Positions 5,072 to 58,003 of a stretch of 60,204 nucleotides of DNA are shown one piece after another (position 1 is the first letter of the stretch; each line of letters begins with the position of its first letter). The DNA is from a virus, in IMG/VR virus record IMGVR_UViG_3300036944_000689, positions 1-60,204 of that record. One strand, 5' to 3'. The notes beneath the pieces were generated by a model. That model searched no databases and had not been told where the DNA came from. It saw only the letters and a program-made list of their open reading frames with translations. The translations under genes and the position numbers were made by a program.

Positions 5072-5113
5072 CCCCCAGTAGGGTTAGCGCCAAAGGGCGG
5101 GCGCCGGAACACT
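5072..5113 (+). promoter_or_regulatory. Copy 1 of the bipartite late motif (CCCCCAGTAGGGTT-N18-CCGGAACACT)
   Basis: Exact 14-mer at 5072-5085 and exact 10-mer at 5104-5113. ATG 5121 lies 7 nt after AACACT. Confidence 0.55.
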
Positions 5114-5120
5114 GCGGGGC

Positions 5121-5558
5121 ATGACGATCACGCCCGCCAGTCTCAACCTGCCCATCATCCAAGGCGCCACCTTTGATGAGGCGTTGGAGCGCAGCTTTTT
5201 CCCGTACGACACCGAATGGGTTTGCGGCCAGCTTGTCCGGGCCGACACGGGCGCGCCAGTCAATGAGGCTGACCGCGTGCTGGAGAACTACACAGGCTGC
5301 TCTGCGGAGGTGCAGCTGCGGCACCCTGAAACCAATGCGCTGATCAAGACACTCTCCACGGCCAATTCCGGCATTGTGCTTGATGCCAACACGCTGCGGC
5401 TGCTCATAAGCCACACCGACACCGCAGCGCTGGTGTACGGGGAAACAGCCCCGGCGTGGACGTATGCCGTTGGACACGTCGAAGTCACGCGCGCTGACGG
5501 CACCCGCGAGCGCCAATACTCGATCACCTTCCCTCTGAACCCGGAGCTGACGGTGTGA
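5121..5558 (+). CDS. Hypothetical tail-module protein, 145 aa
   Basis: Track ORF. Its stop overlaps the GTG/ATG region of the next gene. No SD before the ATG (candidate leaderless start). Confidence 0.6.
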
Positions 5559-9971: not shown

Positions 9972-10540
9972 CCACCTACCAGCTCACCCACGAGGGTTAC
10001 GTCATCAAGGATGGCGACACCAAGGTGCCAACGGCAAAGGTTCCGGGCATTGACCCGCACCCCGAAACTCTGGCTTATGAAGCCTGGCTTAAGGCGGGCG
10101 GGGTGCCGCTGCCTGCAGAACTTCCACCCATCGCTGAACGCCGCGCTGCAGTGTGGGAGCGCATCAAAGCCGAGCGCGACCGCCGCGCCGCTCTGGGCGT
10201 GAAGGTTGGAGCGCACTGGTTCCACAGCGATCAGAAAAGCCGCACGCAGCAACTTGGGATGGTGCTGCTGGGGCAGAGTATCCCGGCTGGGCTGCAGTGG
10301 AAGACGCTCACGTTCACTCCACCGCCTGTCTTTGTGACCATGACCCCGGCCTTGGCTGTCGGCATCGTGCAGAGCACTGCCGCCAGTGATACGGCCATCT
10401 TCACCGCCGCCGAAGTGCACCGCATGACCATGGAGGCCAGCGCGACACCTCATGAATACGACTTTTCCACGGGCTGGCCCGTGTCCATTGAGGAGGAAGC
10501 CAATGAAGCGGGTATTCAGTTTGACGCGAGCGTACTTTGA
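9968..10540 (+). CDS. Tail fibre assembly/chaperone-like protein (DUF4376-like), 190 aa
   Basis: ATGA overlap with the fibre gene. [11 protein letters not shown]...G..V.G.WFHSD pattern as remembered for DUF4376. Positioned directly after a fibre gene. Confidence 0.55.
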
Positions 10541-10829
10541 ACAGGTATTCCTGGCGCTGGACCAGCTGGTCAACGCGCTGATTCCCCCGCTCGACGGCAC
10601 GATTAGCTACGCAGACGAAACCCTGTCAGCGCGCAGCTACCGCGCGTGGCGTGACGGAAAGATCCTGGGCAGGCTGACCATGAAGCCCATCAACCTGCTG
10701 TTCTTCTGGCAAGGCCCAGACCATTGCAAGAACGCCTACACCAAGGAGTTCGACCGCAAGAACTACCCGAGCGAGTACCACCCGCCCAACGGGCCGCGCT
10801 ACACATCGCGAAACAACGCCCCCCAGTAG
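10503..10829 (+). CDS. Hypothetical protein, 108 aa
   Basis: Internal ATG preceded by GAGGAGGAAG. Its TAG stop lies inside late-motif copy 2. Confidence 0.5.
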   Translation: MKRVFSLTRAYFEQVFLALDQLVNALIPPLDGTISYADETLSARSYRAWRDGKILGRLTMKPINLLFFWQGPDHCKNAYTKEFDRKNYPSEYHPPNGPRYTSRNNAPQ

Positions 10830-10862
10830 GGTTCGACCGCATGTTTCATGGCCCGGATCATC
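10820..10862 (+). promoter_or_regulatory. Copy 2 of the bipartite late motif (N19 spacing, CCGGATCATC variant)
   Basis: Exact 14-mer at 10820-10833. ATCATC at 10857-10862 is followed after 7 nt by ATG 10870. Confidence 0.5.
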
Positions 10863-10869
10863 CGGGCTC

Positions 10870-11181
10870 ATGGATCAAGCACAGACTCAAGGCGCCCCAG
10901 CGGCCCACTCGGAAGAAATCGCCGAGATCAAAGTGCGCCTCGATGCTGGTGATGCCCGCATGGGGCGTATCGAACAGGATCTTGCCGCGAACACAGCGGC
11001 CACCCAGCAGACGGCGGCCAGCACCGCCGAGCTGGTTGATCTATTCACTTCCTTCAAAGGCGCGTTCCGGGTGTTTGAGTACATCGGGCGGCTCGCCAAA
11101 CCCCTCGGGTACATCGTCGGGGCCTGCGCATCACTCGCGGCACTCTGGACGGCCTGGAAGTCTGGGGTGAACCCAAAATGA
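10870..11181 (+). CDS. Putative holin or lysis-cassette membrane protein, 103 aa
   Basis: Hydrophilic coiled N-terminus and a single C-terminal TM (PLGYIVGACASLAALWTAW). Directly upstream of, and ATGA-coupled to, the endolysin. Confidence 0.45.
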   Translation: MDQAQTQGAPAAHSEEIAEIKVRLDAGDARMGRIEQDLAANTAATQQTAASTAELVDLFTSFKGAFRVFEYIGRLAKPLGYIVGACASLAALWTAWKSGVNPK

Positions 11182-14076: not shown

Positions 14077-14673
14077 TTAGCAGGACTCAGAGCCTTTGAT
14101 TTGCTTGAAACGCCCAGCACCAAAGATGCAAAGGCGGCGGGTGCTGAGGTCGGTCAGCGTTCTGTCTTTTGCGATCACATCCATTGATAGAGTGTTGACC
14201 GGGACAAGCCCCTTCTTGTCTGTGAACCGCCCGTTCCTGTCCATGAACAGGCCGCCGCCGTCAGTTGGGGCTACGACAACAAGCATGTTTGGCGATGGAT
14301 TGCTTTCTTGAATGGTGCACTCAGTGGGGTCTGCAGGAGTGCACGCGGCTTGAGTTCCGTTATTGTCTGCATCGACAAAGATCCGCCAGCCGCACTTCCA
14401 GTCGTCGTTTCCGGTTGACACGCAACTGCCAGAAACATCGTTCTTGACGATGGCGATTTTGCCGCCAAGGCCAATGGCTTTGGACCGGGCGAAATAGAGG
14501 CTGCTCTGCAGTTCCTCAATCGTTGTTTTGACTCGCCAGCGTTCGATCAGTGGTTGGAAACTTGGAAGCGCCAGGGCGGCCAGCAGACCCAAGATGGTCA
14601 CTACCACTAAGACCTCGACGATGGTGAACCCGCTCTGTCTGCGTGGGTGGGATAGCGATGAAGTGTGAAGCAT
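14077..14673 (-). CDS. Type IV pilin-like protein, FimT/GspH minor-pilin family, 198 aa
   Basis: Prepilin motif RRQSG/FTIVEVLVVVTILGLLAALALPSF with Glu5. GspH-like segment TTIEELQSSLYFARSKAI. Cys-rich C-terminus. Confidence 0.75.
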   Translation of the reverse strand: MLHTSSLSHPRRQSGFTIVEVLVVVTILGLLAALALPSFQPLIERWRVKTTIEELQSSLYFARSKAIGLGGKIAIVKNDVSGSCVSTGNDDWKCGWRIFVDADNNGTQAACTPADPTECTIQESNPSPNMLVVVAPTDGGGLFMDRNGRFTDKKGLVPVNTLSMDVIAKDRTLTDLSTRRLCIFGAGRFKQIKGSESC

Positions 14674-15229: not shown

Positions 15230-16270
15230 CTACCTCTTGGCCTTTCCGGCGCCCAGCTTCTCGAGCACATGCTTTGGCTGAATGTGCGTGTACCGCTTGA
15301 GCGATTCCCAACTGGTGTGCCCTGAAATCAAAGACACCTCGGGGATGGACAACCCAGCCTCGAAAAGCCTGCTGATCCCTTCGTGCCGAAGGTCGTGCAG
15401 GGTGATGTCTTCCAGCTCCAGCAGTTTTGCCGCCCGCTGGAAAGCCGCACTGACAGACGTACCGAGAAACGGGAAGATCCGGCCTTCGGTACGCGGCATC
15501 CCCGCCAGGATGGACTGCGCCGCTGGCGGCACCGGGACCACCTCGTCCCGTGGCATGGTCGGGTGCTTGGTGTCCCTGAGCGTGAGGGTGTGGTTTTTGG
15601 CGTCGTAGTCCGCCCACTTGGCGTTCATGATTTCCTCGCGGCGCCTGGGCAGGGCCACCAGAAAACGCAGGATCGTCGGCAGGGGAATCATGGTCCCATC
15701 CAGTCTGCTCCACCACGCATCAATCATGTCCAGCTCGGCATCCGTGACGCGGCGGTCCCGGCGCTTGCTGGGCGCAACCACCTGCATTCGGCGCAGGTGA
15801 TCCAGGGCGTTCGACACCACGGCCATGTCCAGCGGGATGCCGTGTGCCACTGGCGCCGCCCGGTAGGCCGCCCGCACGGCCATCATGTGGTTCAGCAGAG
15901 TGGCGGGTGATCTCCCCTCCGAGTGCTGCACCGCCCAGTCAATGAAATCCGCAGATGTGACGGTGTCCACCGGCTTTTCTGTGAACGAGTAGGCCCGGAT
16001 GTTCTTGAACCTGTGCTCGACAGCTTCGTACTCGCGCCCGATCTTCTTGAGCATCTTGACGTGCATATCCATCAGGTCAGCCAGGGATATCTGCCCCTGC
16101 TTTCTGGCCTGAACTCCGGTCTTTGCAATGCGCTTTTCCAGCGCTGCGGCCCAAGCCTGGGCCTGGGCGCGGGTGTCGAAGGTCGCACTCTCCTGATGGA
16201 CAATGCGGCCATCCTCTTTGATTCGTACCTGGGCTTGAAAGCGGTCGTTGCGCTGGCGGATCGTAGGCAT
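15230..16270 (-). CDS. int: Tyrosine integrase, 346 aa
   Basis: C-terminal catalytic pattern HDLRHEGISRL...LISGHTSWESLKRYTH (R-H-R-Y family). N-terminal SAM-like domain. Confidence 0.9.
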   Translation of the reverse strand: MPTIRQRNDRFQAQVRIKEDGRIVHQESATFDTRAQAQAWAAALEKRIAKTGVQARKQGQISLADLMDMHVKMLKKIGREYEAVEHRFKNIRAYSFTEKPVDTVTSADFIDWAVQHSEGRSPATLLNHMMAVRAAYRAAPVAHGIPLDMAVVSNALDHLRRMQVVAPSKRRDRRVTDAELDMIDAWWSRLDGTMIPLPTILRFLVALPRRREEIMNAKWADYDAKNHTLTLRDTKHPTMPRDEVVPVPPAAQSILAGMPRTEGRIFPFLGTSVSAAFQRAAKLLELEDITLHDLRHEGISRLFEAGLSIPEVSLISGHTSWESLKRYTHIQPKHVLEKLGAGKAKR

Positions 16271-16827: not shown

Positions 16828-17817
16828 TCATGCGGAGGTCTCCATCACGCATTCAATGAAGGCTTGCGCGGCTTTCGCGTTGATGGCGTTACCGTAGGCG
16901 CGCAGGCGTCCCACTCGGGCGGGAGCCCCATGAGCCAGCGGGAATGAGCCGGGTTCAACTGGCCGCCAGCGGCCATCCCGGCAGAAGAGCCAGTCAGCAT
17001 CTCGCCAGTAGCCGTTAGTCGGGCCGGTTGGTCCGGGTGCGGCTTGCATGGCTCCATCGCTGCCCGCCATTGCCCGCTGATCTGCCCATGCGCCGCCGGT
17101 GACGTGCTGCCCACAAGTGGCGTCGGCCATCCCGCCAGCGCCACGATCTGCCCCAACGGCTTGCCCGTGTCCCATGGCCTCGCATCCTTCACGCCCCGGC
17201 TCGCATCGGTTGCTGTCGTTGTCGGCCAGCCAGCCAAAGTCACGGTCTTGCGCAACTCCGTACGACGGCACTCCGAATCCGGCTCGTAACAATTCCCCCG
17301 TCCGTCGTTCGCCTTGGGCGTCGGCCACCCAGTAGAGCCGGTCTCGGATATGCGGCGCACCGACGCCCGCAGACGGGAACGGGACCGCCCCGAAGGCGTA
17401 ACCCATGGCTTCCACGTCATTGCATACAAGGTCGATCCAAGGGTCTGCGTCTTTGCTTGCAACTTGCTCTCCAAGGACGATTGCAGGGCGGCACTCTTTG
17501 ATAAGGTGGTGGAAGTGGGGCCAGAGGTGCCGCTGGTCATCAAACCCAGCTCCTTGGCCTGCCGCGCTGAAAGGTTGGCACGGACAGGAACCAGTCCAAA
17601 CAGGTCGGTCGTCGCTCCATCCGGCAGACCGGAGGGCATGTGACCAAACGCCAATGCCTGCGAAGAAATGGCACTGGGTGAAGCCGCGCAAGTCGCTGGG
17701 GTAGACATCTTCAATGCTCCTTTCGTCCACGATGCCAGGCGCTATGTGCCCGGCGTTGATGAGGTTGCGCAGCCACTGAGCCGCGAACGGGTCTATCTCG
17801 TTGTAGTAAGCGGTCAT
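16828..17817 (-). CDS. DNA (cytosine-5) methyltransferase, 329 aa
   Basis: Motif I FFAGIGVW, motif [10 protein letters not shown], motif VI LGEQV, motif [12 protein letters not shown], motif X GNAI. Confidence 0.85.
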
Positions 17818-17821
17818 GGGC

Positions 17822-17845
17822 AAAAAAAAGGCCCCTCTCGGAGCC
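17822..17845 (-). terminator. Intrinsic terminator (minus strand) just upstream of the methyltransferase start
   Basis: Minus-strand RNA GGCUCC-GAGA-GGGGCC followed by U8. The G-U pair makes it strand-specific. Confidence 0.7.
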
Positions 17846-32956: not shown

Positions 32957-33517
32957 TCAGTGATTCACATCTGCCCGCCCCTTGCCCTTGGCTTTGCCGA
33001 CTGGCTTAGGAGCAGGTGCAATGGTTGGGGGCGGTGCGACGTGTGCCCATGGGTTTGCCTCGGACTTGACCGGCTTGACCACGTTGTGAAGTTTGTTCGC
33101 AAGCGCGAGCACCTCATCTTTCCCGTCAGCCGACAGGTCCCTGAAAAGCAGCACCAGATGCAACTCCAATCGATGGAGTGACGTTAGATCCATGGGTCCG
33201 CTTGGGCGGTCTTCCTGTACTTGGTCAGCAGTTGCTACACCAGCAAGCTCGGCCAGGGTGTTTGACAGCATCGGGCTGAAATCAGAGATCTTGCAGCCCA
33301 GTAGCTTGCTGAATTTCGCAGCGGCCGCGTTGTTCAGCGGGATGCGCCCGTTCAGGTACTGGCTCAAGGCGCTCTGCCCAAACCCTAACTGGTCAGCAGC
33401 CCATTCTTGGGAGTTCGGCTCGCCTCGACTTTTTCGGTCTGTCTTCCAGGCTTTAAACAAAGTCTGTAGGCGTTGTGCATCGGCCTTTTGCTCAGGCGAT
33501 AGGGGTTGGGCTGGCAT
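32957..33517 (-). CDS. CI-like repressor (XRE HTH N-terminus, no S24 peptidase C-terminus), 186 aa
   Basis: EWAADQLGFGQSALSQYLNGRIPLN is an HTH. Divergent from the Cro-like gene across the operators. The C-terminus lacks any Ser/Lys autocleavage motif. Confidence 0.75.
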   Translation of the reverse strand: MPAQPLSPEQKADAQRLQTLFKAWKTDRKSRGEPNSQEWAADQLGFGQSALSQYLNGRIPLNNAAAAKFSKLLGCKISDFSPMLSNTLAELAGVATADQVQEDRPSGPMDLTSLHRLELHLVLLFRDLSADGKDEVLALANKLHNVVKPVKSEANPWAHVAPPPTIAPAPKPVGKAKGKGRADVNH

Positions 33518-39867: not shown

Positions 39868-40382
39868 AGCGCAGCGGATTCAAAACCCGCGTGCATTGCC
39901 GTGAGCCACGCGACCCAGACCGCGTTCGTGCCACGCCCACCGTGACGCCCGGAGCATTCCGCGCGCCGCAGTCGGTGGTGGCCGCGCCAGCCGCCGCCCC
40001 GAAGACTACGGCCCACCGTAACGCCCACTTGCGCGAAATGGCCCGAGGCATGCCCTGCCTGCTGCGCGTTCCCGGTGTGTGCACCCAGGACCGCGCCACG
40101 GTGGTGTGCTGCCACAGCAATTTGAGCATCCACGGCAAAGCGGGAGCCCGCAAGGCAGACGACCACTACAGCGTGTGGGGCTGCGCGGCTTGCCACCAAT
40201 GGCTGGATCAAGGGGCCGCGCCGCGCGCGCAGAAGGCCGCCGCTTTCATGTCCGCCCATCTGGCCCAGGTGCTGGAGTGGCGCGCCATCGCCTTTGACAC
40301 CAACAGCTCGCCACGCGACCGGGGCGCCGCGCTCTGGGCGCTGGGGCTGTTGAACGCAACACCTGCAGGAGCACAACCATGA
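39864..40382 (+). CDS. YbcO-like putative nuclease (DUF1364), 172 aa
   Basis: MPCLLRVPGVC....ATVVCCH.....GKAGARKADD.....GCAACHQWLD matches the YbcO pattern. Confidence 0.7.
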   Translation: MKRSGFKTRVHCREPRDPDRVRATPTVTPGAFRAPQSVVAAPAAAPKTTAHRNAHLREMARGMPCLLRVPGVCTQDRATVVCCHSNLSIHGKAGARKADDHYSVWGCAACHQWLDQGAAPRAQKAAAFMSAHLAQVLEWRAIAFDTNSSPRDRGAALWALGLLNATPAGAQP

Positions 40383-40717
40383 CAACCCGCCACTACCTTG
40401 GAGAAAACACCAAGGCGATCCTCAACACGTTGGACAAGAGCGGCCCCATGAGCCGGGACCAGGTGGTCGCCGCCACCGGTATAGAGCGCGACACGGTGGG
40501 CACATACCTGCGCCGCTGTGCATTCCGTGGGCTGGTGACAGCAGACAGAACCGTGAACCCACCGGTCTTTGCCGTCACACCTGGCTGGGAGGCATACCTT
40601 GTAACCACGCGCCCACCGGACAAGCCAAAGAAGCCCAGGCCCGAGCCCGTCACCACGGTGGCCATCGCCCGGCAGACACAACCGAACAGCGTCTTTGCTC
40701 TGGGAGCGCATCAATGA
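40379..40717 (+). CDS. Winged-helix DNA-binding protein, 112 aa
   Basis: ILNTLDKSGPMSRDQVVAATGIERDTVGTYLRRCAFRGLV is MarR-like. ATGA overlaps. Confidence 0.55.
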   Translation: MTTRHYLGENTKAILNTLDKSGPMSRDQVVAATGIERDTVGTYLRRCAFRGLVTADRTVNPPVFAVTPGWEAYLVTTRPPDKPKKPRPEPVTTVAIARQTQPNSVFALGAHQ

Positions 40718-41190
40718 CGAGAAAACACTGCAAGCGCAAGGTGTGGAGCACATCCATCAACGCCGTCACGCACGCTATCGAAGGCGCCGCGATCACGTCA
40801 GAACCCTTGCTGAACCAACTCCGCGCCCGCGAACTGGCTGCCGTGGAGGCTTTCCGAACGGGGTCCGCCACGCTGCAGGAGTGGGCTGACATCACCGGGA
40901 TGCTCAACATCTGCGAAACCATGGCGCGCGGAGGGATTGGCCCCGAAGCATTGGAGGCCTGCGAACGGGCCGAACGTGAACTGATTGCCGCAGGTCTGCG
41001 CTTTGAGAAAACACGGCGCATGGCAACCAGCGGCCCGGGGTTGCAGGCCTTCCGCGACGTTTACCAGTTCCATGATCTTAAAAGGCAATGCGTGAGCCGC
41101 GCGGAGTACGACCGCTGGATCAAGAAGACATCACTGCGGACCAAGTCAAAGGCGCCCGAGGTGCGCGACATGGCCGAGGTGGCGAGGTGA
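40714..41190 (+). CDS. Hypothetical protein, 158 aa (candidate late regulator by position only)
   Basis: Track ORF. One of the last genes of the rightward early operon before the tRNAs and late genes. Confidence 0.55.
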   Translation: MTRKHCKRKVWSTSINAVTHAIEGAAITSEPLLNQLRARELAAVEAFRTGSATLQEWADITGMLNICETMARGGIGPEALEACERAERELIAAGLRFEKTRRMATSGPGLQAFRDVYQFHDLKRQCVSRAEYDRWIKKTSLRTKSKAPEVRDMAEVAR

Positions 41191-41776: not shown

Positions 41777-42271
41777 ATGATGACCGACAAGAACCTCAGT
41801 GAAAAGCGCAGCAGCCGTGTGCAGGTGCTGGAAGCTGTGCACGCCTTGAACGATCAAGAGATGGAGATCAACGTGTCCGCGCTGGTCCGCCACACCGGAT
41901 TGAAGGTAGTCACGGTGAACGACTGCATCAAGGAGTTGAAGGAGCGTGGGGACATTTTTTCACCAGCCCGGGGAATCTACAAACCCAGCCTGCGACATGA
42001 GCCGAGCGAGGCCGTCAGCCTGACAGCCCTGCCAACCGGCCATGTGAAGTTGGAGAAGGGCGACACCGTGATGGAGTTCACCCCGCATGAGTGGCGGCTG
42101 CAGGTGGCGCCGTTTGCGGCTGGGGCATCCGCGCAGACGGCGGTGATTGAGGCCACGCACCACACGCTGCAGCTGCTGGAGCAGGTCCGCAAGCTCCAGC
42201 GCCAGGTGGACGGGCTGCGCACGGTCATCGCAACGAATCCGGCGCAACTGGCGCTGTTGGAGGCGGCATGA
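41777..42271 (+). CDS. Winged-helix protein with a C-terminal coiled coil, 164 aa
   Basis: VLEAVHALNDQEMEINVSALVRHTGLKVVTVNDCIKELKERGDI. Internal Met of track ORF 41723..42271. Confidence 0.55.
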   Translation: MMTDKNLSEKRSSRVQVLEAVHALNDQEMEINVSALVRHTGLKVVTVNDCIKELKERGDIFSPARGIYKPSLRHEPSEAVSLTALPTGHVKLEKGDTVMEFTPHEWRLQVAPFAAGASAQTAVIEATHHTLQLLEQVRKLQRQVDGLRTVIATNPAQLALLEAA

Positions 42272-42910: not shown

Positions 42911-43384
42911 ATGACGCAAGACGAAGTGAACGACGAAAAAACCGAGTCTGCTGAAAATGCAAGGATTGAGCCGGTTCAAGGCGGGGTTGTGATCTGGGAT
43001 TCCATAAGCCACATGATGAACGAAACCGCAGAACAAGCCGCCCGCGACATGCTTGAACGCATGGGCATCGAAGACGCTCAGAGCATCACAACCGTGGATC
43101 TCATGGAGCTGACAAACCTCATCGCCGCGAGCAAGAAGGCAACTCCACCCCAAGAATGGGAGCCCCTGACGCCTGAGCGGCTGGAGAAGCTCAATCGATC
43201 CCGCTCAGAGGAACCCGCCACGTACTGGGTGGCAGCCAATGGCCAGCATCATGGAGAAAAGCCATATCTCGGCACTTACTCGTATTTCGACCAAGTGTTT
43301 TACTGCGACGACGAGCGAGCGATTCATGCATCTAACGTCACTCACATCATGGCCGTATACATCCCCGAGTTGCCAAAGGCTTGA
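42911..43384 (+). CDS. Hypothetical protein, 157 aa
   Basis: SD AAAGGAG. The C-terminus VTHIMAVYIPELP is faintly DUF551-like. Confidence 0.55.
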   Translation: MTQDEVNDEKTESAENARIEPVQGGVVIWDSISHMMNETAEQAARDMLERMGIEDAQSITTVDLMELTNLIAASKKATPPQEWEPLTPERLEKLNRSRSEEPATYWVAANGQHHGEKPYLGTYSYFDQVFYCDDERAIHASNVTHIMAVYIPELPKA

Positions 43385-43532
43385 CACCACCGCAGAGCGC
43401 GGCATCATGTTTTGTGCACGATAGACGGCGGCGGCGGTTTCCGGAACTACCCCTTACCGAGACAACCCAGAGCCCGGGGCGCGCGCCTTGAGTCGTAGCA
43501 CAGAATGCTGCGGCAAGGGACTCTCGAAATAT

Positions 43533-43608
43533 CGCGGTGTAGCTCAGATAGTAGAGCGCCGGGTTCATACCCCGAAAGTCGAGGATGCGAGCGCCTCCAC
43601 CGCAACCA
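43533..43608 (+). tRNA. tRNA-Met (anticodon CAT) with initiator-like features and a non-canonical T arm
   Basis: 76-nt cloverleaf folded by hand. C1-A72 mismatch. Three G-C pairs closing the anticodon stem. Loop TTCATAC. T loop TGCGAGC with A53-G61. Encoded ACCA end. Confidence 0.7.
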
Positions 43609-43612
43609 TCAA

Positions 43613-43688
43613 GTATCGGTAGCTCAACTGGCAGAGCGCTGGTCTCCAAAACCAGAGGTTGTAGGTTCGAGGCCTACCCGGTATGCCA
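43613..43688 (+). tRNA. tRNA-Trp (anticodon CCA)
   Basis: 76-nt cloverleaf. Acceptor GTATCGG/CCGGTAT with two G-U pairs. Anticodon loop CTCCAAA. T arm GTAGG-TTCGAGG-CCTAC. Encoded GCCA end. Confidence 0.8.
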
Positions 43689-43695
43689 GGTTTTG

Positions 43696-43803
43696 AATTG
43701 CGTGCCAGAGTTGGTCTATAGGTGACTCGATGCAAGAGCGGGGGCGTGGCGCCGAGAGCCTATACGCCCGCGCCCATGGGTTCAAATCCCATCGCAGTTC
43801 CCA
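43696..43803 (+). ncRNA. 108-nt tRNA-like element with canonical acceptor, T arm and CCA but an aberrant core
   Basis: AATTGCG pairs with CGCAGTT. T arm ATGGG-TTCAAAT-CCCAT. The 3-prime end is C-CCA. The 73-nt interior contains a long GC hairpin. No valid anticodon arm was found. Confidence 0.45.
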
Positions 43804-43812
43804 CACACCAAG

Positions 43813-43838
43813 GCCGCCTACTGGGGCGGCTTTTCTTT
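43813..43838 (+). terminator. Intrinsic terminator after the tRNA cluster
   Basis: GCCGCC-TACTGG-GGCGGC followed by TTTTCTTT. Confidence 0.8.
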
Positions 43839-43840
43839 GC

Positions 43841-43882
43841 CCCCCAGTAGGGTTCGATCAGAAAGTCCATTCCCGGAACACT
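43841..43882 (+). promoter_or_regulatory. Copy 3 of the bipartite late motif, heading the packaging/head genes
   Basis: Exact 14-mer at 43841-43854, N18, exact CCGGAACACT at 43873-43882. ATG 43890 lies 7 nt after AACACT. Confidence 0.6.
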
Positions 43883-43889
43883 CCGGGCC

Positions 43890-44516
43890 ATGGCAAAGAA
43901 ACCGGCTGGAAAACCTGCCACCCCAAGCAAAACGACACCTGCGGCCTCAAAGAAGGGGCGCTCTACTGGTGCGCGCGTGGATGGTTTGCTGCCTAAACAG
44001 GCCAAGTTTGTAGCGGAATACCTAATATCCGGAAATGCCACGCAAGCCGCTCTGGCTGCGGGTTACAGCCCCAAGACCGCCCATGTGATCGGGCAGGAAA
44101 ACTTGAAGAAACCTGTAATCGCAAGTCTTTTGCAGGTAAAGAACACCGAAATCGCCGCGCGCCAGGATGAACGCCTCGCCGCGATGGAGTTGACCAAGGA
44201 GCGCGTGCAGCGCGAGATCGCCCGGATCGCCTTCTTCGACGCCCGCAAGATGTTTGGCCCGGACGGCACGCCACTGGCTATCACCGAGCTGGACGACGAC
44301 ACCGCCGCCTGCATCGTGGGCCTGGATGTGTTGGAAGAGTGGCAAGGCACTGGCGAAGCCCGGGTGCTGGTCGGCCACGTCAAGAAGTACAAGATCGCCA
44401 ACAAGAATGTGGCGCTGGATCAGGCTTCCAAGATCCTGGGGATGTACGAGAAGGACAACGAGCAGACCAAGCCAAACGTCCGCGTGGTGGTTGTTCCAGC
44501 GAAGGACGCATCGTGA
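43890..44516 (+). CDS. terS: Terminase small subunit, 208 aa
   Basis: LPKQAKFVAEYLISGNATQAALAAGYSPKTAHVIGQENLKKP is the typical Terminase_2-type HTH region. Confidence 0.9.
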   Translation: MAKKPAGKPATPSKTTPAASKKGRSTGARVDGLLPKQAKFVAEYLISGNATQAALAAGYSPKTAHVIGQENLKKPVIASLLQVKNTEIAARQDERLAAMELTKERVQREIARIAFFDARKMFGPDGTPLAITELDDDTAACIVGLDVLEEWQGTGEARVLVGHVKKYKIANKNVALDQASKILGMYEKDNEQTKPNVRVVVVPAKDAS

Positions 44517-48694: not shown

Positions 48695-49726
48695 ATGAAC
48701 CCCTTGCTCAAGATGATGATGGCCCGCGTGATGGCTCCCGCTGGCGAAGATGGCACCGACACCGGTGGAACAGACACGTCTGTGGTGGATCGCGGCGATG
48801 TGGTTGACCCTGCTCTGACCGCAGACAACCTGGCATCGCTGGTCGAGGCCAATGACGATGGCTTCGGAGATGCAGACCCCAACGCAGGCGAGCAGGACGA
48901 CCAGGCGGCTGGAGAAGGCCAAGGCGGCGCAGATGATGCTGCTGGCGAACACGGGCGCCCCGCCGCCACTGGCATCCCCAAGGGCCGCTTCAACGAAGTG
49001 AATCAGCAGCGCAAAGACGCGCTGGCCGCGCTGGCCGCCGCCAATGAAGAGATCGCTCGCCTGAAGGGGACGAAGCCAGACGCTGCGAGCCCAACACCTG
49101 CACCGGCGCCAGCTGCGAAAGCACCAGCCCCTGCAACTGCCGCCGCAGCACCAGCCGGTGAATTCGACGTCGAGGCCCAGGAAGAAGCCTATGTTGCCGC
49201 CCTGATGGAGGGTGACACGAAGGGCGCTGTCGCCATCCGCCGCCAGATCAATGCGTTCCTCCAGGACCAGGCATCAGCCCGAGCAACCCAGGAACTGACG
49301 GCCAGACAGTCCGCGCAGCTGCTGAAGACCACCGCCGAAAGCGTGTCGGCTGCCTACCCATGGTTGAACACTCCGGAAGGCGCAGACACGCTGGAACTGA
49401 TCCTGGCTGCGCGCGACCGCAAGATCGCAAACGGCATGCCTCCACACCTGGCACTGGCCGACGCAGCGAACACTATTGCCCCGAAATTCGCCCCTGAAGG
49501 TGAGACGCCCCCCAGTAGGGTTTCTGCAAATGGCGAACCTGCGAAAGACTCACGTCCAGCAGCAGCACTAGCCCGTGGTGCAGCGGATTCAACCGCTCAA
49601 CCACCGGCATTGCAGGCTGGTATCGGGCAGCGGGCAACCGCCGCACGCGTGAACGTAAGTCAGATGACCGAGGAGCAATTCGAGGCGCTGACACCGGCTG
49701 AGAAGAAACGCCTACGCGGCGATTGA
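48695..49726 (+). CDS. Scaffolding protein, 343 aa
   Basis: Acidic N-terminus, Ala/Pro-rich linker and helical C-terminus. Lies immediately before the capsid gene. Confidence 0.7.
   Translation: MNPLLKMMMARVMAPAGEDGTDTGGTDTSVVDRGDVVDPALTADNLASLVEANDDGFGDADPNAGEQDDQAAGEGQGGADDAAGEHGRPAATGIPKGRFNEVNQQRKDALAALAAANEEIARLKGTKPDAASPTPAPAPAAKAPAPATAAAAPAGEFDVEAQEEAYVAALMEGDTKGAVAIRRQINAFLQDQASARATQELTARQSAQLLKTTAESVSAAYPWLNTPEGADTLELILAARDRKIANGMPPHLALADAANTIAPKFAPEGETPPSRVSANGEPAKDSRPAAALARGAADSTAQPPALQAGIGQRATAARVNVSQMTEEQFEALTPAEKKRLRGD
49509..49550 (+). promoter_or_regulatory. Copy 4 of the bipartite late motif, located inside the scaffold ORF
   Basis: Exact 14-mer at 49509-49522, N18, then GCGAAAGACT (7/10 match). 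Confidence 0.35.
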
Positions 49727-51491: not shown

Positions 51492-51543
51492 AGGCCAGAA
51501 ACGGCCTTTTGCACCCGGTGGCTTGATCACCACCGGGTTTTTT
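51492..51543 (+). terminator. Tandem intrinsic terminators
   Basis: AGGCC-AGAAAC-GGCCT plus TTT, then CCCGGTGG-cttgatca-CCACCGGG plus TTTTTT. Confidence 0.8.
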
Positions 51544-52594: not shown

Positions 52595-52636
52595 CCCCCA
52601 GTAGGGTTCGACCAACCCCATCCCAATCGGGAGACT
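52595..52636 (+). promoter_or_regulatory. Copy 5 of the bipartite late motif
   Basis: Exact 14-mer at 52595-52608, N18, then TCGGGAGACT (7/10 match). Confidence 0.45.
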
Positions 52637-52666
52637 TGGCGGCAAGACACCCCGAAAGGCTCACCG

Positions 52667-55060
52667 ATGTACGGCTACCAGCCACCGGCAGCGCGCCGTC
52701 TCGCGCAAACCCCTGAACAATACGCAGACGGCGGCCTGGTTGCGCGCATGAAAAGCGCCGATGCCGGGCCTGCTGCGTTTGGCTCGCGTGGCCTGAGCCA
52801 GTTGCGCGACATGGTGCCCAAGGTGGCCTCGATGGGCTACCCGCAGCAAGCCGCAGCGCCTGCTCCAGCCCCTGCCCCTGTATCCGACCCACGCGCATCC
52901 CAGTTGATGGCCATGATCCCGCAGATGGAGGCTATGGGGTTCAAGCAGAAGCCGCAGATGCTCGCCCGTGGTGGCATGGTGCGCGGACCCGGCACCGGCA
53001 CCAGCGACAGCATCGCCACCGAAGCCGAGCCCGGCACGTACATCATGCCCGCCGACTCCACGGCCGCAATCGGCCCGAGCGCGCTGGAGAAGATGGGCAC
53101 AGTCCCTGTGCGCCTGAGCGACGGCGAGTTTGAGTTTCCACCCGAACAGGTGATGGCCATTGGCGCTGCCGTGCTCAAGCTCATGAAAGACGCCACGCAC
53201 ACCCCTGTGAATGGTGAAGACGGCGGGCAGACTGACGCCGAAGTCGAGGATGACGACGACGATGAAAAAGGCGCCCGTGGCTTCAACCCGGCCGACCGCA
53301 TGGCCGAGATGCCCCAGATGTTCGCAGACGGTGGAATGGTGGACCCGAACCGCCCACGCAGCTTTGGAGATGCCGCAGCCGCTGCGCAAGATCCTGGTGT
53401 GACGCAGATTGGCGCAGGCTACCAGCCCGCCAATGGAACCATGAGCGTTGTCCCGGCGCAGCCTCGGCCAGCGCTCGGAGTGACCTCGACCCCCGTGCAA
53501 CCGTCTTCGACGCCCGTCAATGTGGCGAACCCAGCATGGCAGCGCATGGCGGCCGCGCCCAGCCCTGCAGCTCCCGCCCAGGCCCCCATGGGCTGGCAGG
53601 CCCGCCAGGATCAGCGCAGTCTGGAAGTGACCGCCAGTTCGATCATGGACAGCCCAGAGCGCCGCGCCGCGCAGCAACGATTGGGCACGATGCCAGCAGC
53701 CGGGTTCCAGCCGCGCCGGTATGCGGATGGCGGCATGGTCGAAGACGACCTGCAAAAGCGCCTGATGCAGATCCCATCAAGCGCCCCTGCTGGCTGGAAT
53801 GGCGGCGGAGCCAATTCTGGTGGTGCAACCGGCAGCTGGGAGGCGCCACAGGCCGCACCCGCCACGACGCAACCCGCTGGTGCCCTGACTCGCGCCGCAT
53901 CCATGTCTGCCCCCGCTCCCGCAGCTCAGGCCATGGGGACGTTGCCAAACAACGCTGTCACGCGCACCGGCAACAGCTACACCGGCCCCGCGAACATCAG
54001 CGGCGACATCACGGTAAACGGCCAGACGCCGGGCGGTGGCGCGATCAGCGCGCAGAACATGGGCGCAGCTGACTCCCTGGCGCGCCGTGGTGCTGCTGAC
54101 GCAATGGCCTCGATGCCGAATGCTCCGGCGCCAGTGCAGGCGCCTACCATTCGCACCAGCGCGAACGACTGGCAGGCGCGCAAGGACTTGGAGAACGCCG
54201 CCACATCGGCAGCGAGCATCACCAACAACGGCGGCCGGTTTGACCCGACAGGTGGCAAGAACCCCGCCGCTCTGGCCTACCGTGCCGCACTGGAAACCGA
54301 CAACGCCTTGCGCGCCAGCGCCCCGGGCCTCGCTCAGCAGGCCATGCGCGAACAAGGCGACACCCAGCGCGCAGGACTGCAGGTGACTGCCAGCGGCTTG
54401 AATGCAGCGGCCGACCGCCAAAACGCATTGGAGCGCACGCTGATTGGCGAGCGCGGCGCAAACGCGCGGGCCGGGCTGTCTGCTGCGGCGACGCTGGATG
54501 CGGCAAAGGTCAGGGCCGGAGCTGGTGCGAACAAGCCATTGAACGACGTGCAAAGCAAGGCGCTGCAGTTCGGCACGCGGATGCAGGCAGCAGGCTCTGT
54601 GCTGGATGGCCTTGCCTCCAAGGGTGTGGACCAGCCCGGCCTGATCAAGCGCGCCGCCGACGCCGTTGGCATGGGAGGCGCAGCAAACTGGACTCAGAGC
54701 GGCGAACAACAGCAGGTTGAACAAGCCCAACGCGATTTCATCAACGCCGTGCTGCGCCGCGAGTCTGGTGCTGCGATTGCTGACAGCGAGTTCTCCAACG
54801 CGCGCCAGCAGTATTTCCCGCAGGTTGGCGACAGCCCCGAGGTAATCGCCCAGAAGCGCAAGAACCGCGAGATTGCCACGGCTGGCGTCCTGGCAGAAGT
54901 GCCTGATAGCGAAACCCGTGTGAACCAGGTGATGGCCACAGCGAACGGGAACAGTCAGGCCCCGCAGGGCTTGCCATCGGGCATGTCCCGGCAAGTCGGA
55001 ACATCAGGCGGCCGCCCAGTCTACGAAGACGCGCAGGGCAATCGATTCATTGGAGGCTGA
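52667..55060 (+). CDS. Large Ala/Gly/Pro-rich virion (internal/ejection-like) protein, 797 aa
   Basis: Track ORF. Repeated (Y/F/L)A(D/R)GG(M/L)V motif four times. GPGTGTSDSI...SDGEFEFP segment. Confidence 0.7.
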   Translation: MYGYQPPAARRLAQTPEQYADGGLVARMKSADAGPAAFGSRGLSQLRDMVPKVASMGYPQQAAAPAPAPAPVSDPRASQLMAMIPQMEAMGFKQKPQMLARGGMVRGPGTGTSDSIATEAEPGTYIMPADSTAAIGPSALEKMGTVPVRLSDGEFEFPPEQVMAIGAAVLKLMKDATHTPVNGEDGGQTDAEVEDDDDDEKGARGFNPADRMAEMPQMFADGGMVDPNRPRSFGDAAAAAQDPGVTQIGAGYQPANGTMSVVPAQPRPALGVTSTPVQPSSTPVNVANPAWQRMAAAPSPAAPAQAPMGWQARQDQRSLEVTASSIMDSPERRAAQQRLGTMPAAGFQPRRYADGGMVEDDLQKRLMQIPSSAPAGWNGGGANSGGATGSWEAPQAAPATTQPAGALTRAASMSAPAPAAQAMGTLPNNAVTRTGNSYTGPANISGDITVNGQTPGGGAISAQNMGAADSLARRGAADAMASMPNAPAPVQAPTIRTSANDWQARKDLENAATSAASITNNGGRFDPTGGKNPAALAYRAALETDNALRASAPGLAQQAMREQGDTQRAGLQVTASGLNAAADRQNALERTLIGERGANARAGLSAAATLDAAKVRAGAGANKPLNDVQSKALQFGTRMQAAGSVLDGLASKGVDQPGLIKRAADAVGMGGAANWTQSGEQQQVEQAQRDFINAVLRRESGAAIADSEFSNARQQYFPQVGDSPEVIAQKRKNREIATAGVLAEVPDSETRVNQVMATANGNSQAPQGLPSGMSRQVGTSGGRPVYEDAQGNRFIGG

Positions 55061-57076: not shown

Positions 57077-57095
57077 TTTCAGCCGCATCAACACA

Positions 57096-57118
57096 GGCCC
57101 GCTTCGGCGGGCTTTTTT
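57096..57118 (+). terminator. Intrinsic terminator
   Basis: GGCCCGC-TTCG-GCGGGCT followed by TTTTTT. Confidence 0.85.
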
Positions 57119-57122
57119 GCGC

Positions 57123-57164
57123 CCCCCAGTAGGGTTCGCTCCTTTCCCCCATCCCCGGAACACT
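57123..57164 (+). promoter_or_regulatory. Copy 6 of the bipartite late motif, heading the tail genes
   Basis: Exact 14-mer at 57123-57136, N18, exact CCGGAACACT at 57155-57164. Lies directly after the terminator. Confidence 0.55.
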
Positions 57165-57196
57165 GCAAGCCATCCACCTTGCAGGAGCCTCCGGCT

Positions 57197-58003
57197 ATGG
57201 CCAATACCGCATACCCCAAGGGGGCTCAGAAGATTCTGGGCGCCTCGATTGACTTCATCGACGACACCATCAAGGCGTGTCTGCTGCCCAACACCTACAC
57301 ATTCAGCACCGCGCATGAATTCGTGGCTGATCTTGGCACGCGCATCGGCACCGACCAGACGCTGGCGAGCAAGTCGATTACCGGGGGCGTGCTGGATGCC
57401 GACAACCTGGACTACGGCGCTCTGGCCCCTGGCAGCACGGTAAAGGCACTGGTGATCTACAAGGACACCGGGAACACCTCGACGGCTCCAGTCCTGTTCT
57501 ATTTCGACACCGTGGCCGGGTTCCCCTTTGCCACGAATGGCGGTGCGCTGACCATCCCCTGGGATGACGGCGTCAAGAAGATCGCCCGCATCACCACGCC
57601 GTTCTATCCCTTGGGCGCGCAGAAGGTGCTGGCAGGCGAGATCAATTTCAGCTCGGACACGCTCAAGGTCGTGGCCTTGCCGACCAGCTACGTTTACGAC
57701 GGCGCCCACGAATTCCTGGATGACATCGCGGCGGTAATTGGCACGGCGCAGACGCTGACCAGCAAGACCATTGCGGACGGTGTGTTTGATGCCGCCGACC
57801 CCAGTTTTGGCGCCATCGCATCGGGTTCGACCATCGGATCGCTGTTGATCTACAAGGACACCGGCACGGCGGGCACTTCGCCTCTCCTGCTGCGCCTGAC
57901 TGCTGACAACGCCGTTGGCCTGCCGCTGTCCACGAATGGCTTTGCCATCTCGCACCAGTGGCCTAACGGCTCCGCAAAGATTTTCAGCCTGATCCCGGCG
58001 TAA
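57197..58003 (+). CDS. Tail-module protein built from two tandem homologous halves, 268 aa
   Basis: SD GCAGGAGCC. YPKGAQKILGASIDFIDDTIK... and YPLGAQKVLAGEINFSSDTLK... align along about 130 aa each. Confidence 0.7.
   Translation: MANTAYPKGAQKILGASIDFIDDTIKACLLPNTYTFSTAHEFVADLGTRIGTDQTLASKSITGGVLDADNLDYGALAPGSTVKALVIYKDTGNTSTAPVLFYFDTVAGFPFATNGGALTIPWDDGVKKIARITTPFYPLGAQKVLAGEINFSSDTLKVVALPTSYVYDGAHEFLDDIAAVIGTAQTLTSKTIADGVFDAADPSFGAIASGSTIGSLLIYKDTGTAGTSPLLLRLTADNAVGLPLSTNGFAISHQWPNGSAKIFSLIPA

Follow-up and report, generated by a model that had tools for sequence, protein, structure and literature searches.

A six-copy bipartite element as a candidate class of activator-dependent late promoters in a temperate phage genome

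Introduction

What is the function of a bipartite DNA element that stands six times, always on the same strand, at the late gene blocks of one phage genome, and which protein reads it? The question arose for IMG/VR record IMGVR_UViG_3300036944_000689, of which positions 1 to 60,204 were analysed (the window hereafter, meaning that whole stretch of 60,204 bp). The window is an apparently complete, circularly permuted genome of a temperate, Acidovorax-type phage. The element consists of a 14-mer, here called the box, and a downstream block that holds a hexamer shaped like a −10 element; one copy, at 43841–43882, directly precedes the small terminase gene. An original prediction, made from the letters of the window, took the element for a phage-specific late promoter class that needs a phage-encoded activator or sigma-like factor, and named three candidate genes for that factor. 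The comparative evidence presented here supports such a promoter class. An activator fits better than a sigma-like factor, as no sigma factor or RNA polymerase was found. We consider it probable that the six copies are late promoters for host sigma70 RNA polymerase, and that they need a phage activator, the 164-amino-acid (aa) protein encoded at 41777–42271.

Results

Six copies of the element in the window

An exact search of the window found the 14-mer CCCCCAGTAGGGTT exactly six times, always on the plus strand, as the original prediction had it. Nowhere in the window does the 14-mer occur with one or two mismatches, nor exactly on the minus strand. Chance is excluded for six exact 14-mers on one strand in 60 kb, because the expectation is far below one and because dozens of related contigs carry the bipartite element again, with spacers that are not conserved. 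When the six copies were aligned with their flanks, conservation was limited to the 14-mer and the downstream block, with a variable spacer between them. The 10-mer CCGGAACACT that forms this block is exact in copies 1, 3 and 6, as first described; the remaining three copies (2, 4 and 5) all match it at 7 of 10 positions, rather than at 7 to 8. Within the block, a hexamer of the form xAxxxT begins at a constant 22 nt past the 14-mer in all six copies. The spacing of 18 nt in five copies and 19 nt in one that had been proposed earlier was a product of aligning on CCGG, and it vanishes once the hexamer of copy 2 is read as GATCAT.

The late genes are on the plus strand and run from 43890 to the window end and on to about 14 kb, in the order small and large terminase, portal, scaffold-like protein, major head protein, large virion proteins, tail, fibres, presumed holin and endolysin. 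The block positions assigned to the copies by the original prediction were borne out; as a correction, copy 4 is not in a gap between genes. Copy 3 (43841–43890, plus strand) heads the packaging block. Its box is at 43841–43854, followed by a −35-like TCGATC at 43854–43859 and the hexamer AACACT at 43877–43882. The predicted transcription start is the A of ATG 43890, the start codon of the small terminase gene, which would make this mRNA leaderless. Copy 1 (5072–5121, plus strand; box 5072–5085, hexamer AACACT 5108–5113) is likewise predicted to be leaderless from ATG 5121, and precedes the gene of a 145-aa protein and then the fibre genes. Copy 2 (10820–10870, plus strand; box 10820–10833, hexamer GATCAT 10856–10861, ATG 10870, predicted leaderless) heads the lysis block. 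The first gene of that block encodes a 103-aa protein without a family match, presumed to be the holin from its place before the endolysin gene at 11178.

Copies 5 and 6 differ in having a predicted leader. In copy 5 (52595–52667, plus strand; box 52595–52608, hexamer GAGACT 52631–52636), a leader of about 23 nt with AAAGG would precede ATG 52667 of a 797-aa virion protein, and the copy heads a block of two large virion proteins. In copy 6 (57123–57199, plus strand; box 57123–57136, hexamer AACACT 57159–57164), a leader of about 25 nt with AGGAG would precede ATG 57197 of the tail block.

Copy 4 (49509–49558, plus strand; box 49509–49522, hexamer AAGACT 49545–49550) lies inside the scaffold-like gene 48695–49726, about 330 nt upstream of the ATG of the major head protein (about 49,887). 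Its DNA encodes ..ETPPSRVS.. in a variable linker of the scaffold-like protein, which is 46% identical to its counterpart in Acidovorax phage AP1. The copy is kept in the related loci L115, L132 and L099. The box appears to be tolerated within coding sequence, because the box of copy 4 is read through as ..PPSRV.. and because the TAG within the 14-mer of copy 2 (10827–10829) is the stop codon of the upstream open reading frame (ORF) 10452–10829.

Two copies directly follow strong intrinsic terminators on the plus strand, as had been noted earlier. The terminator at 43810–43838 (stem 43810–43833, then a U-tract; −16.6 kcal/mol) closes a tRNA unit upstream of copy 3, and that at 57095–57120 (stem 57095–57114, then a U-tract; −14.9 kcal/mol) is directly upstream of copy 6. 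They end 2–4 nt before the respective copies. Both were established by folding; a general terminator scan did not list them.

Anatomy of the element across related contigs

A scan of relatives had been suggested together with the original prediction. The 14-mer was found at 117 loci in viral contigs, of which about half were unrelated chance matches in AT-rich DNA. The remaining loci, in dozens of contigs, carry the full bipartite element, and their spacers are unconserved. For offset statistics, 59 non-redundant instances in G+C-rich contexts were used and offsets of 10–39 were compared. The form xAxxxT occurred at offset 22 in 51 of the 59, and at any other offset in no more than 4. As a control, the unrelated 14-mer matches carried it at offset 22 in 6 of 50. 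Only position 2 (A) and position 6 (T) of the hexamer are near-invariant in the family, and these are the two −10 bases recognised by sigma70 region 2. The earlier reading of the hexamer as −10-shaped is thus strengthened, with A2 and T6 kept at a fixed 22 nt both in the relatives and in all six window copies.

The position profile showed further conserved features. A G stands one position past the box (53 of 58 relatives), the hexamer is directly preceded by CGG, and C-A is found where the ATG begins. Such a C-A agrees with the preference of transcription starts for a pyrimidine at −1 and a purine at +1. A G+C-rich discriminator of 6–9 nt separates the hexamer from C(−1)A(+1). If +1 is taken as the A of the ATG, or as the base 7–8 nt past the hexamer, the box would span about −49 to −36 with its centre at about −42, these starts being predicted. 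The box has little dyad symmetry. The lack of a TTGACA-like −35 that had been remarked upon holds insofar as a typical −35 is missing, and a consensus scan found no sigma70-type promoter at any of the six copies. The box does lead into a weak −35-like sequence, T-c-G-a/c-C, which matches TTGACA at 3–4 of 6 positions and lies 17 bp from the hexamer, the ideal distance.

Across the family, the consensus is CCCC-N2-(G/C)TA(G/A)GG(T/C)T-N22-xAxxxT. Five contigs (L002, L007, L050, L062 and L075) have the canonical box together with variants at positions 6–7 (CCCCCTG.., CCCCCAC.., CCCCCCG..). Since single contigs mix both kinds, one factor would tolerate variation at these positions. The possession of six identical boxes is an unusual trait of the window. 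The canonical element also occurs in prophages of Acidovorax (including that of A. facilis DSM 649, with four canonical copies), of Ideonella and of a metagenome-assembled genome labelled Neisseriales.

Two other kinds of bacterial promoter were considered and rejected. For a sigma54 promoter (GG-N10-GC; TGGCAC-N5-TTGC), CGGAAC resembles TGGCAC, but the distance from GG to GC is 12, 13 or 14 nt among the copies, and a start about 12 nt further on would fall inside ORFs. For an extracytoplasmic function (ECF) sigma promoter, with GGAAC as −35 and a CGTC-like −10, nothing is conserved 16–17 nt past GGAAC, and that region is coding in copies 1–3.

Co-occurrence of the element with one small protein

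We next asked which protein of the window accompanies the element. The early rightward operon (plus strand, about 33.6–43.4 kb) runs from a primase-helicase gene through RusA, NinB and a YbcO/HNH nuclease to several small uncharacterised proteins. When its ORFs were compared with the motif loci by tblastn, 41723/41777–42271 stood out with 11 loci matched. In nine of these the protein is just 28–32% identical, yet the 14-mer is identical. The gene is the last conserved one of the operon, after those of RusA, NinB and HNH and upstream of the small terminase gene. Its true start is most likely ATG 41777 (164 aa) and not 41723, because homologs cover only that part.

A profile of the candidate was built from 23 homologs. 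Wherever a locus included a terminase-type copy with sufficient DNA upstream, the profile found the protein, and it also matched gp37 of Pseudomonas phage F116 (E = 2e-23) and a protein of AP1 (E = 2e-12). In the converse direction, all 9 loci that were fetched by the protein rather than by the motif carried the element downstream of the gene, with the variant cores CTAGGGTT and CTAGGGCT allowed. Of the three candidates put forward originally, only 41777–42271 accompanies the element in every related phage. The other two, 40379–40717 and 40714–41190, were dropped; they occur in close relatives alone and are absent from F116, AP1 and Pseudoalteromonas phage Y7.

These three phages illustrate how the pair has diverged. 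In F116, gp37 is flanked by the genes of NinB, HNH and DUF1064 on one side and by that of the small terminase on the other. Its genome has CCCCC(T/C)GTA(A/G)GGTT four times, ahead of the terminase, head, gp58 and holin genes, each copy with xAxxxT 22–23 nt further on. In AP1 the box takes the variant forms CCCCGCCTAGGGTT, CACCCTGTAGGGTT and CACCGCCTAGGGTT; the hexamers follow at 22 nt, and an ATG comes 7 nt after them. (The AP1 record, OM049504, describes a 55-kb podovirus-like phage. Many of its product names are spurious, such as 'late expression factor-5', 'large tegument protein', 'STEC autoagglutinating adhesin' and 'photosystem'-type names, and are unfit as evidence.) Y7, at 45% G+C, has a homolog 34% identical to the window protein and five plus-strand copies of (A/C)CCAyTGTAAGGTT at late block starts, three of them just past terminators. 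Its hexamers (TACATT, CATACT, TAGAAT, GAAAAT) are closer to TATAAT. Comparison of Y7 with the window therefore suggests that the box stays the same from host to host, and that the hexamer changes with the base composition of the host but keeps A2 and T6.

Phage KPP25 served as a negative control. Its head protein is 50% identical to that of the window, and neither the 164-aa protein nor the element is present.

Such an arrangement could also arise if the copies were promoters as described but the box were read by another phage or host protein, with 41777–42271 merely linked, for example as a packaging accessory encoded next to the small terminase gene. The gene always adjoins the terminase-type copy, so linkage is confounded with function, and features of the protein described below (an acidic recognition helix and weak Foldseek scores) would fit. 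However, the terminase and head modules vary among carriers, with large terminase (TerL) identities of 27–97% and different head modules in F116 and Y7, and still the gene is not parted from the box. The carriers have no other small protein in common, and KPP25 lacks both partners. A different reader of the box is accordingly very unlikely.

The invariant 14-bp box also recalls the promoters of phage RNA polymerases, and the element might belong to an unrecognised phage-encoded RNA polymerase or sigma-like factor. Five large proteins of the window (483–797 aa) have no Pfam match and could be thought to hide such an enzyme. They lie, however, in the virion block, and two of them match virion-type PHROG families without known function. 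No RNA polymerase or sigma domain was found in the scanned proteins (Pfam on 30 proteins including the large and early ones; PHROGs and NCBIfam). Host polymerase fits the bipartite layout, in which a host-like −10 follows the G+C content of the host (Y7 versus Acidovorax), and the sole protein that co-varies with the element has 164 aa. We regard a phage polymerase or sigma-like factor as improbable. The specific case of a single-subunit phage RNA polymerase of known fold was rejected, as Pfam found no polymerase domain in the large and early proteins.

The candidate activator

The 164-aa protein (41777–42271, plus strand) belongs to the F116 gp37 family (phrog_8117), for which Pfam, NCBIfam and PHROGs give no functional name. 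Its AlphaFold2 model, made with an alignment, has a mean predicted local distance difference test (pLDDT) score of 83. The model shows an N-terminal winged helix (helices 13–26, 33–40 and 44–57, wing 60–70), a three-stranded beta unit (80–101) and then a C-terminal helix of 50 residues. A Foldseek search of the PDB with the model returned generic winged-helix domains alone (IclR, DtxR/IdeR, ROK, Z-alpha, MCM/Rpa2; E about 3e-3) and no full-length match. The winged helix itself is modelled with confidence, and those of its neighbours that are of the IclR, DtxR and ROK types are regulators that bind DNA. A sequence-profile search of solved structures with the protein gave nothing significant.

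An exhaustive profile search placed 359 representative clusters in the family at E ≤ 0.001 and 151 at E ≤ 1e-10, nearly all of them 115–260 aa long. One 3593-aa representative protein, P0060, has eleven matches to profile positions 67–108, which correspond to the small beta unit; this unit may be a reusable module. The searchable literature held nothing on the motif strings, on the function of the gp37 family or on F116-like late promoters, the 2005 F116 genome paper lying outside that scope. The papers on phiC725A and VvAW1 do not discuss late promoters.

Start codons and predicted leaderless mRNAs

The position of the start codons was exploited to distinguish two classes of copies. In copies 1–3, the ATG (5121, 10870 and 43890) lies exactly 8 nt past the 10-mer and no Shine-Dalgarno sequence is present, while copies 5 and 6 have both a leader and a Shine-Dalgarno sequence. 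The same split is seen in the family. An ATG starts 6–9 nt past the hexamer in 31 of 51 instances; in the remaining copies, including copies 5 and 6 of the window, it is 16–55 nt downstream and preceded by a Shine-Dalgarno sequence.

Several findings indicate that the close ATG is a genuine start codon. An open frame of at least 60 codons follows it in 33 of 35 members of this class, and N-termini are conserved between phages from that ATG onwards (MKTETLEAIGAAGNK.., MT(V/I)TP.. and the Lys/Pro-rich N-termini of terminases). For the gene of copy 1, MT(I/V)TP.. is kept from ATG 5121 in relatives. Pairing with the anti-Shine-Dalgarno sequence amounts to −3.5 kcal/mol in the close-ATG class; other window genes average −6.9, and leadered copies of the copy-6 type range from −6.6 to −6.9. 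Because the ATG lies at the distance expected of a transcription start and has no Shine-Dalgarno sequence, copies 1–3, half of the six promoters, are predicted to yield leaderless mRNAs. A division into genes that start at +1 and genes preceded by a short leader points to a promoter, and is not expected from an RNA-level translation element.

The small terminase starts annotated at CTG 22851 in F116 (NC_006552) and at TTG 18320 in AP1 (OM049504) are probably wrong. In both phages an in-frame ATG is found 7 nt past a −10-like hexamer, at about 22776 of the F116 record and about 18338 of that of AP1. The F116 ATG is 75 nt upstream of the annotated CTG, and the N-terminus that starts with it is Lys/Pro-rich, as is the N-terminus of the terminase in the window.

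A covarying palindrome around the −10

The hexamer is flanked by an inverted repeat in the leaderless class alone, and this repeat often reaches on to pair the ATG. Examples are CCCTGCAG..CTGCAGGG, CCCGGA..TCCGGG, CACGGAAT..ATTCCGTG and CATG..CATG. In a set of 82 non-redundant instances, mean folding energies were −15.1 kcal/mol for the close-ATG class and −5.8 for the leadered class (p = 2e-10). When upstream halves were swapped among instances, the mean folding energy changed from −12.5 to −9.4 kcal/mol, and none of 5000 permutations reached the native value. The stem covaries in 51 close-ATG copies. As the stem sequences differ between gene contexts, the pairing itself appears to be selected. 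No strand asymmetry was detected in the energy of the palindrome or in its G.U pairs, so that a role in RNA and one in DNA are indistinguishable by these measures.

The covarying stem raises the possibility that the whole element acts at the RNA level in polycistronic late transcripts, in the manner of nut boxA/boxB or put, and serves antitermination, processing or translational control by an RNA-binding phage protein. The occurrence of the element on one strand only and between genes would suit this, and the sigma70-like promoter at 43381–43408, the tRNAs and the terminator upstream of copy 3 recall the PR'-tR' region of lambda. Copies 3 and 6, however, stand just past terminators, too late for antitermination, and the hairpin is missing from the leadered copies, in which box and hexamer are kept. 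Pairing in RNA is not favoured by the G.U counts, and the A2/T6 pattern and fixed DNA spacing fit recognition by sigma70. Rfam at gathering thresholds reported two tRNAs alone in the window and no known RNA family at the copies. An RNA-level element is therefore quite unlikely, and its nut/put antitermination form was rejected on the missing hairpin of the leadered copies, the position of copies 3 and 6 and the lack of an Rfam match.

The palindrome would also lie inside RNA if the 14-mer were itself the core promoter. TAGGGT would then be the −10, transcription would start about 6 nt past the box, and the downstream CGGAACACT and palindrome would form a structured 5′ leader that presents or masks the AUG. 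TAGGGT and TAAGGT do have the TAnnnT shape in the window, F116 and Y7. But T6 of this hexamer is lost in TAAGGA (copy 4 of F116), in TAGGGC (L138) and in the AP1 variants, and upstream of TAGGGT there is only a C-run, with no −35 or extended −10. The strict 22-nt spacing to the second xAxxxT would go unexplained, and it is this second hexamer that is more TATAAT-like in the AT-rich Y7. Moreover, leaders of about 35 nt without a Shine-Dalgarno sequence would be found in exactly the class with its ATG 6–9 nt past the hexamer, while the other class has such a sequence. A core promoter within the box is thus unlikely.

With the downstream hexamer as −10 and transcription starting at the ATG, the 5′ half of the repeat would be outside the leaderless mRNA. 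The structure could therefore act only in read-through RNA or in DNA. We tentatively suggest, while holding it doubtful, that the palindrome is a separate regulatory device: a silencing hairpin in read-through RNA, or a hairpin or cruciform in the DNA that takes part in promoter opening. In the RNA version, the internal AUG, lacking a Shine-Dalgarno sequence, would be silenced by the hairpin in read-through transcripts. Translation of the terminase, fibre and lysis genes would then depend entirely on activator-initiated transcripts that have the AUG at their 5′ end, or on processing that creates such ends. If true, this device would tie the choice of promoter to whether the mRNA can be translated, a link not described for phage late genes.

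Discussion

Proposed mechanism

The results are consistent with the following scheme. The 164-aa protein would be made at the end of the early rightward operon and, probably oligomerised by way of its long helix, bind the box, whose centre would be near −42. Bound there, it would recruit or stabilise RNA polymerase in a class II geometry, as for the C protein of phage Mu. Host sigma70 holoenzyme alone is proposed to be unable to use the promoters because their −35 is poor. With the activator present, the six late units would fire at once, and copy 4 would act as an internal booster that adds to the transcription of the head protein gene. The late units would be insulated by the terminators that precede copies 3 and 6; since these copies lie just past terminators, transcription must restart there. 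Copies 1–3 (fibre, lysis and packaging) would start their mRNAs at the AUG, and copies 5 and 6 would give short leaders with a Shine-Dalgarno sequence.

Several points weigh against this scheme. TAGGGT inside the box shares the TAnnnT shape of a −10, and several large virion proteins (483–797 aa) have no family, which makes a novel polymerase formally conceivable. The gene adjoins the terminase-type copy, so co-occurrence may partly reflect linkage. Binding of DNA by the 164-aa protein is not assured, because the third helix of its winged helix is rather acidic (..VNDCIKELKE..) and because the top Foldseek matches, at a weak E of about 3e-3, are protein-interaction winged helices (MCM, Rpa2). 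A plain promoter does not explain the palindrome around the hexamer in the leaderless class. Lastly, promoter activity, start sites and the identity of the factor are deduced from sequence in every member of the family, as are the binding of DNA by the 164-aa protein and the use of host sigma70. The anatomy of the element, its conservation and its co-occurrence with the 164-aa protein are direct observations.

Comparison with known systems

The closest parallel is with Mu. Four promoters of Mu late genes (Plys, PI, PP and Pmom) possess a −10 but no −35, and a 16-bp C site centred at −43.5 overlaps the −35 position (PMC2582627). C contacts the C-terminal domain of the alpha subunit (alpha-CTD), sigma70 region 4 and the beta flap (bioRxiv 10.1101/2025.05.02.651988). 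In Mu, and by the proposed reading in the window phage too, several late promoters with a −10 and without a typical −35 head the late operons; in the window there would be six, with the box centre at about −42 from the predicted starts. The activators differ. The window protein is unrelated to C and has no Mor/C Pfam match. Mor/C proteins have an N-terminal dimerisation domain and a C-terminal helix-turn-helix (HTH), whereas the order is reversed in the window protein, with the winged helix N-terminal and the long helix C-terminal. The window also differs from Mu in the little dyad symmetry of its box, in that half of its promoters are apparently leaderless and in the palindrome around the −10. 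Membership of the Mor/C family was rejected, as Pfam gave no Mor match in the ten ORFs between 38811 and 43384 and the predicted fold differs. By analogy, the 164-aa protein would be a counterpart of Mu C rather than a member of Mor/C.

The late activators of the RinA, ArpU and LtrC type in Gram-positive hosts are similar in another respect. According to two reports (PMC3753634, PMC3152322), these are small phage proteins whose gene is directly upstream of the small terminase gene, terS, and they switch on the packaging, morphogenesis and lysis genes. The gene of the proposed activator in the window has a like position. Those activators work at a single promoter, found upstream of terS, from which one long late operon is driven, in contrast to the six dispersed copies of the window. 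By Pfam, NCBIfam or PHROG names, these activators have no similarity to the 164-aa protein.

Lambda Q is similar in the place of its gene, which follows nin-like genes (RusA, NinB and HNH in the window) at the end of the early rightward operon. The PR'-tR' system of lambda, however, has one late promoter with antitermination, where the window has six proposed promoters and no Q homolog, and in the window terminators are found upstream of copies and not downstream. P2 Ogr, P4 Delta and P1 Lpa offer further parallels: each is one small phage activator that serves several late promoters with a shared upstream element and a −10. Ogr is a zinc-finger protein with its element at about −55, and P1 Lpa works with host SspA at an element at about −22. 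Both the activators and the element positions of these phages differ from those of the window.

One phage activator acting on several late promoters without a −35 is a well-established principle. What appears to be new here is the protein family, the box, the predicted leaderless starts and the palindrome. The proposal would give a testable function, that of late-gene activator, to an unnamed family that includes gp37 of the classic transducing phage F116. For such temperate podoviruses of Acidovorax, Pseudomonas and marine hosts, it would provide a sequence rule by which late promoters, the limits of operons and the true start codons can be located, and the rule already suggests corrected terminase start codons in F116 and AP1. 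Leaderless late mRNAs would be predicted in Proteobacteria, where such mRNAs are uncommon. A compact, orthogonal pair of activator and promoter might also be of use in engineering.

Other features of the window

A separate tRNA unit lies directly before copy 3. It comprises a sigma70-like promoter at 43381–43408 (plus strand, by consensus scan), a tRNA at 43533–43605 that was called by Rfam and missed by ARAGORN, a second tRNA at 43613–43688, a third tRNA-like part and the terminator at 43810–43838. The third part is a tRNA-like 3′ end (GGTTCAAATCC...CCA) at about 43778–43808, within about 43700–43808, and was called by neither Rfam nor ARAGORN.

Among the late genes, a strong intrinsic terminator at 51513–51538 (a 9-bp stem, then TTTTTT) follows the gene 3′ of the major head gene, 1 kb before copy 5. 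The minus-strand region of about 14–33.5 kb encodes the integrase (15230–16270) and a CI-like HTH protein (32957–33517). A C5 cytosine DNA methylase (16828–17823, minus strand) is encoded in this early leftward region. Next to the integrase is a gene for a pseudopilin-like protein (14077–14673, minus strand) with an N-terminal methylation motif and a GspH domain, which may be a moron acting on type IV pili or type II secretion.

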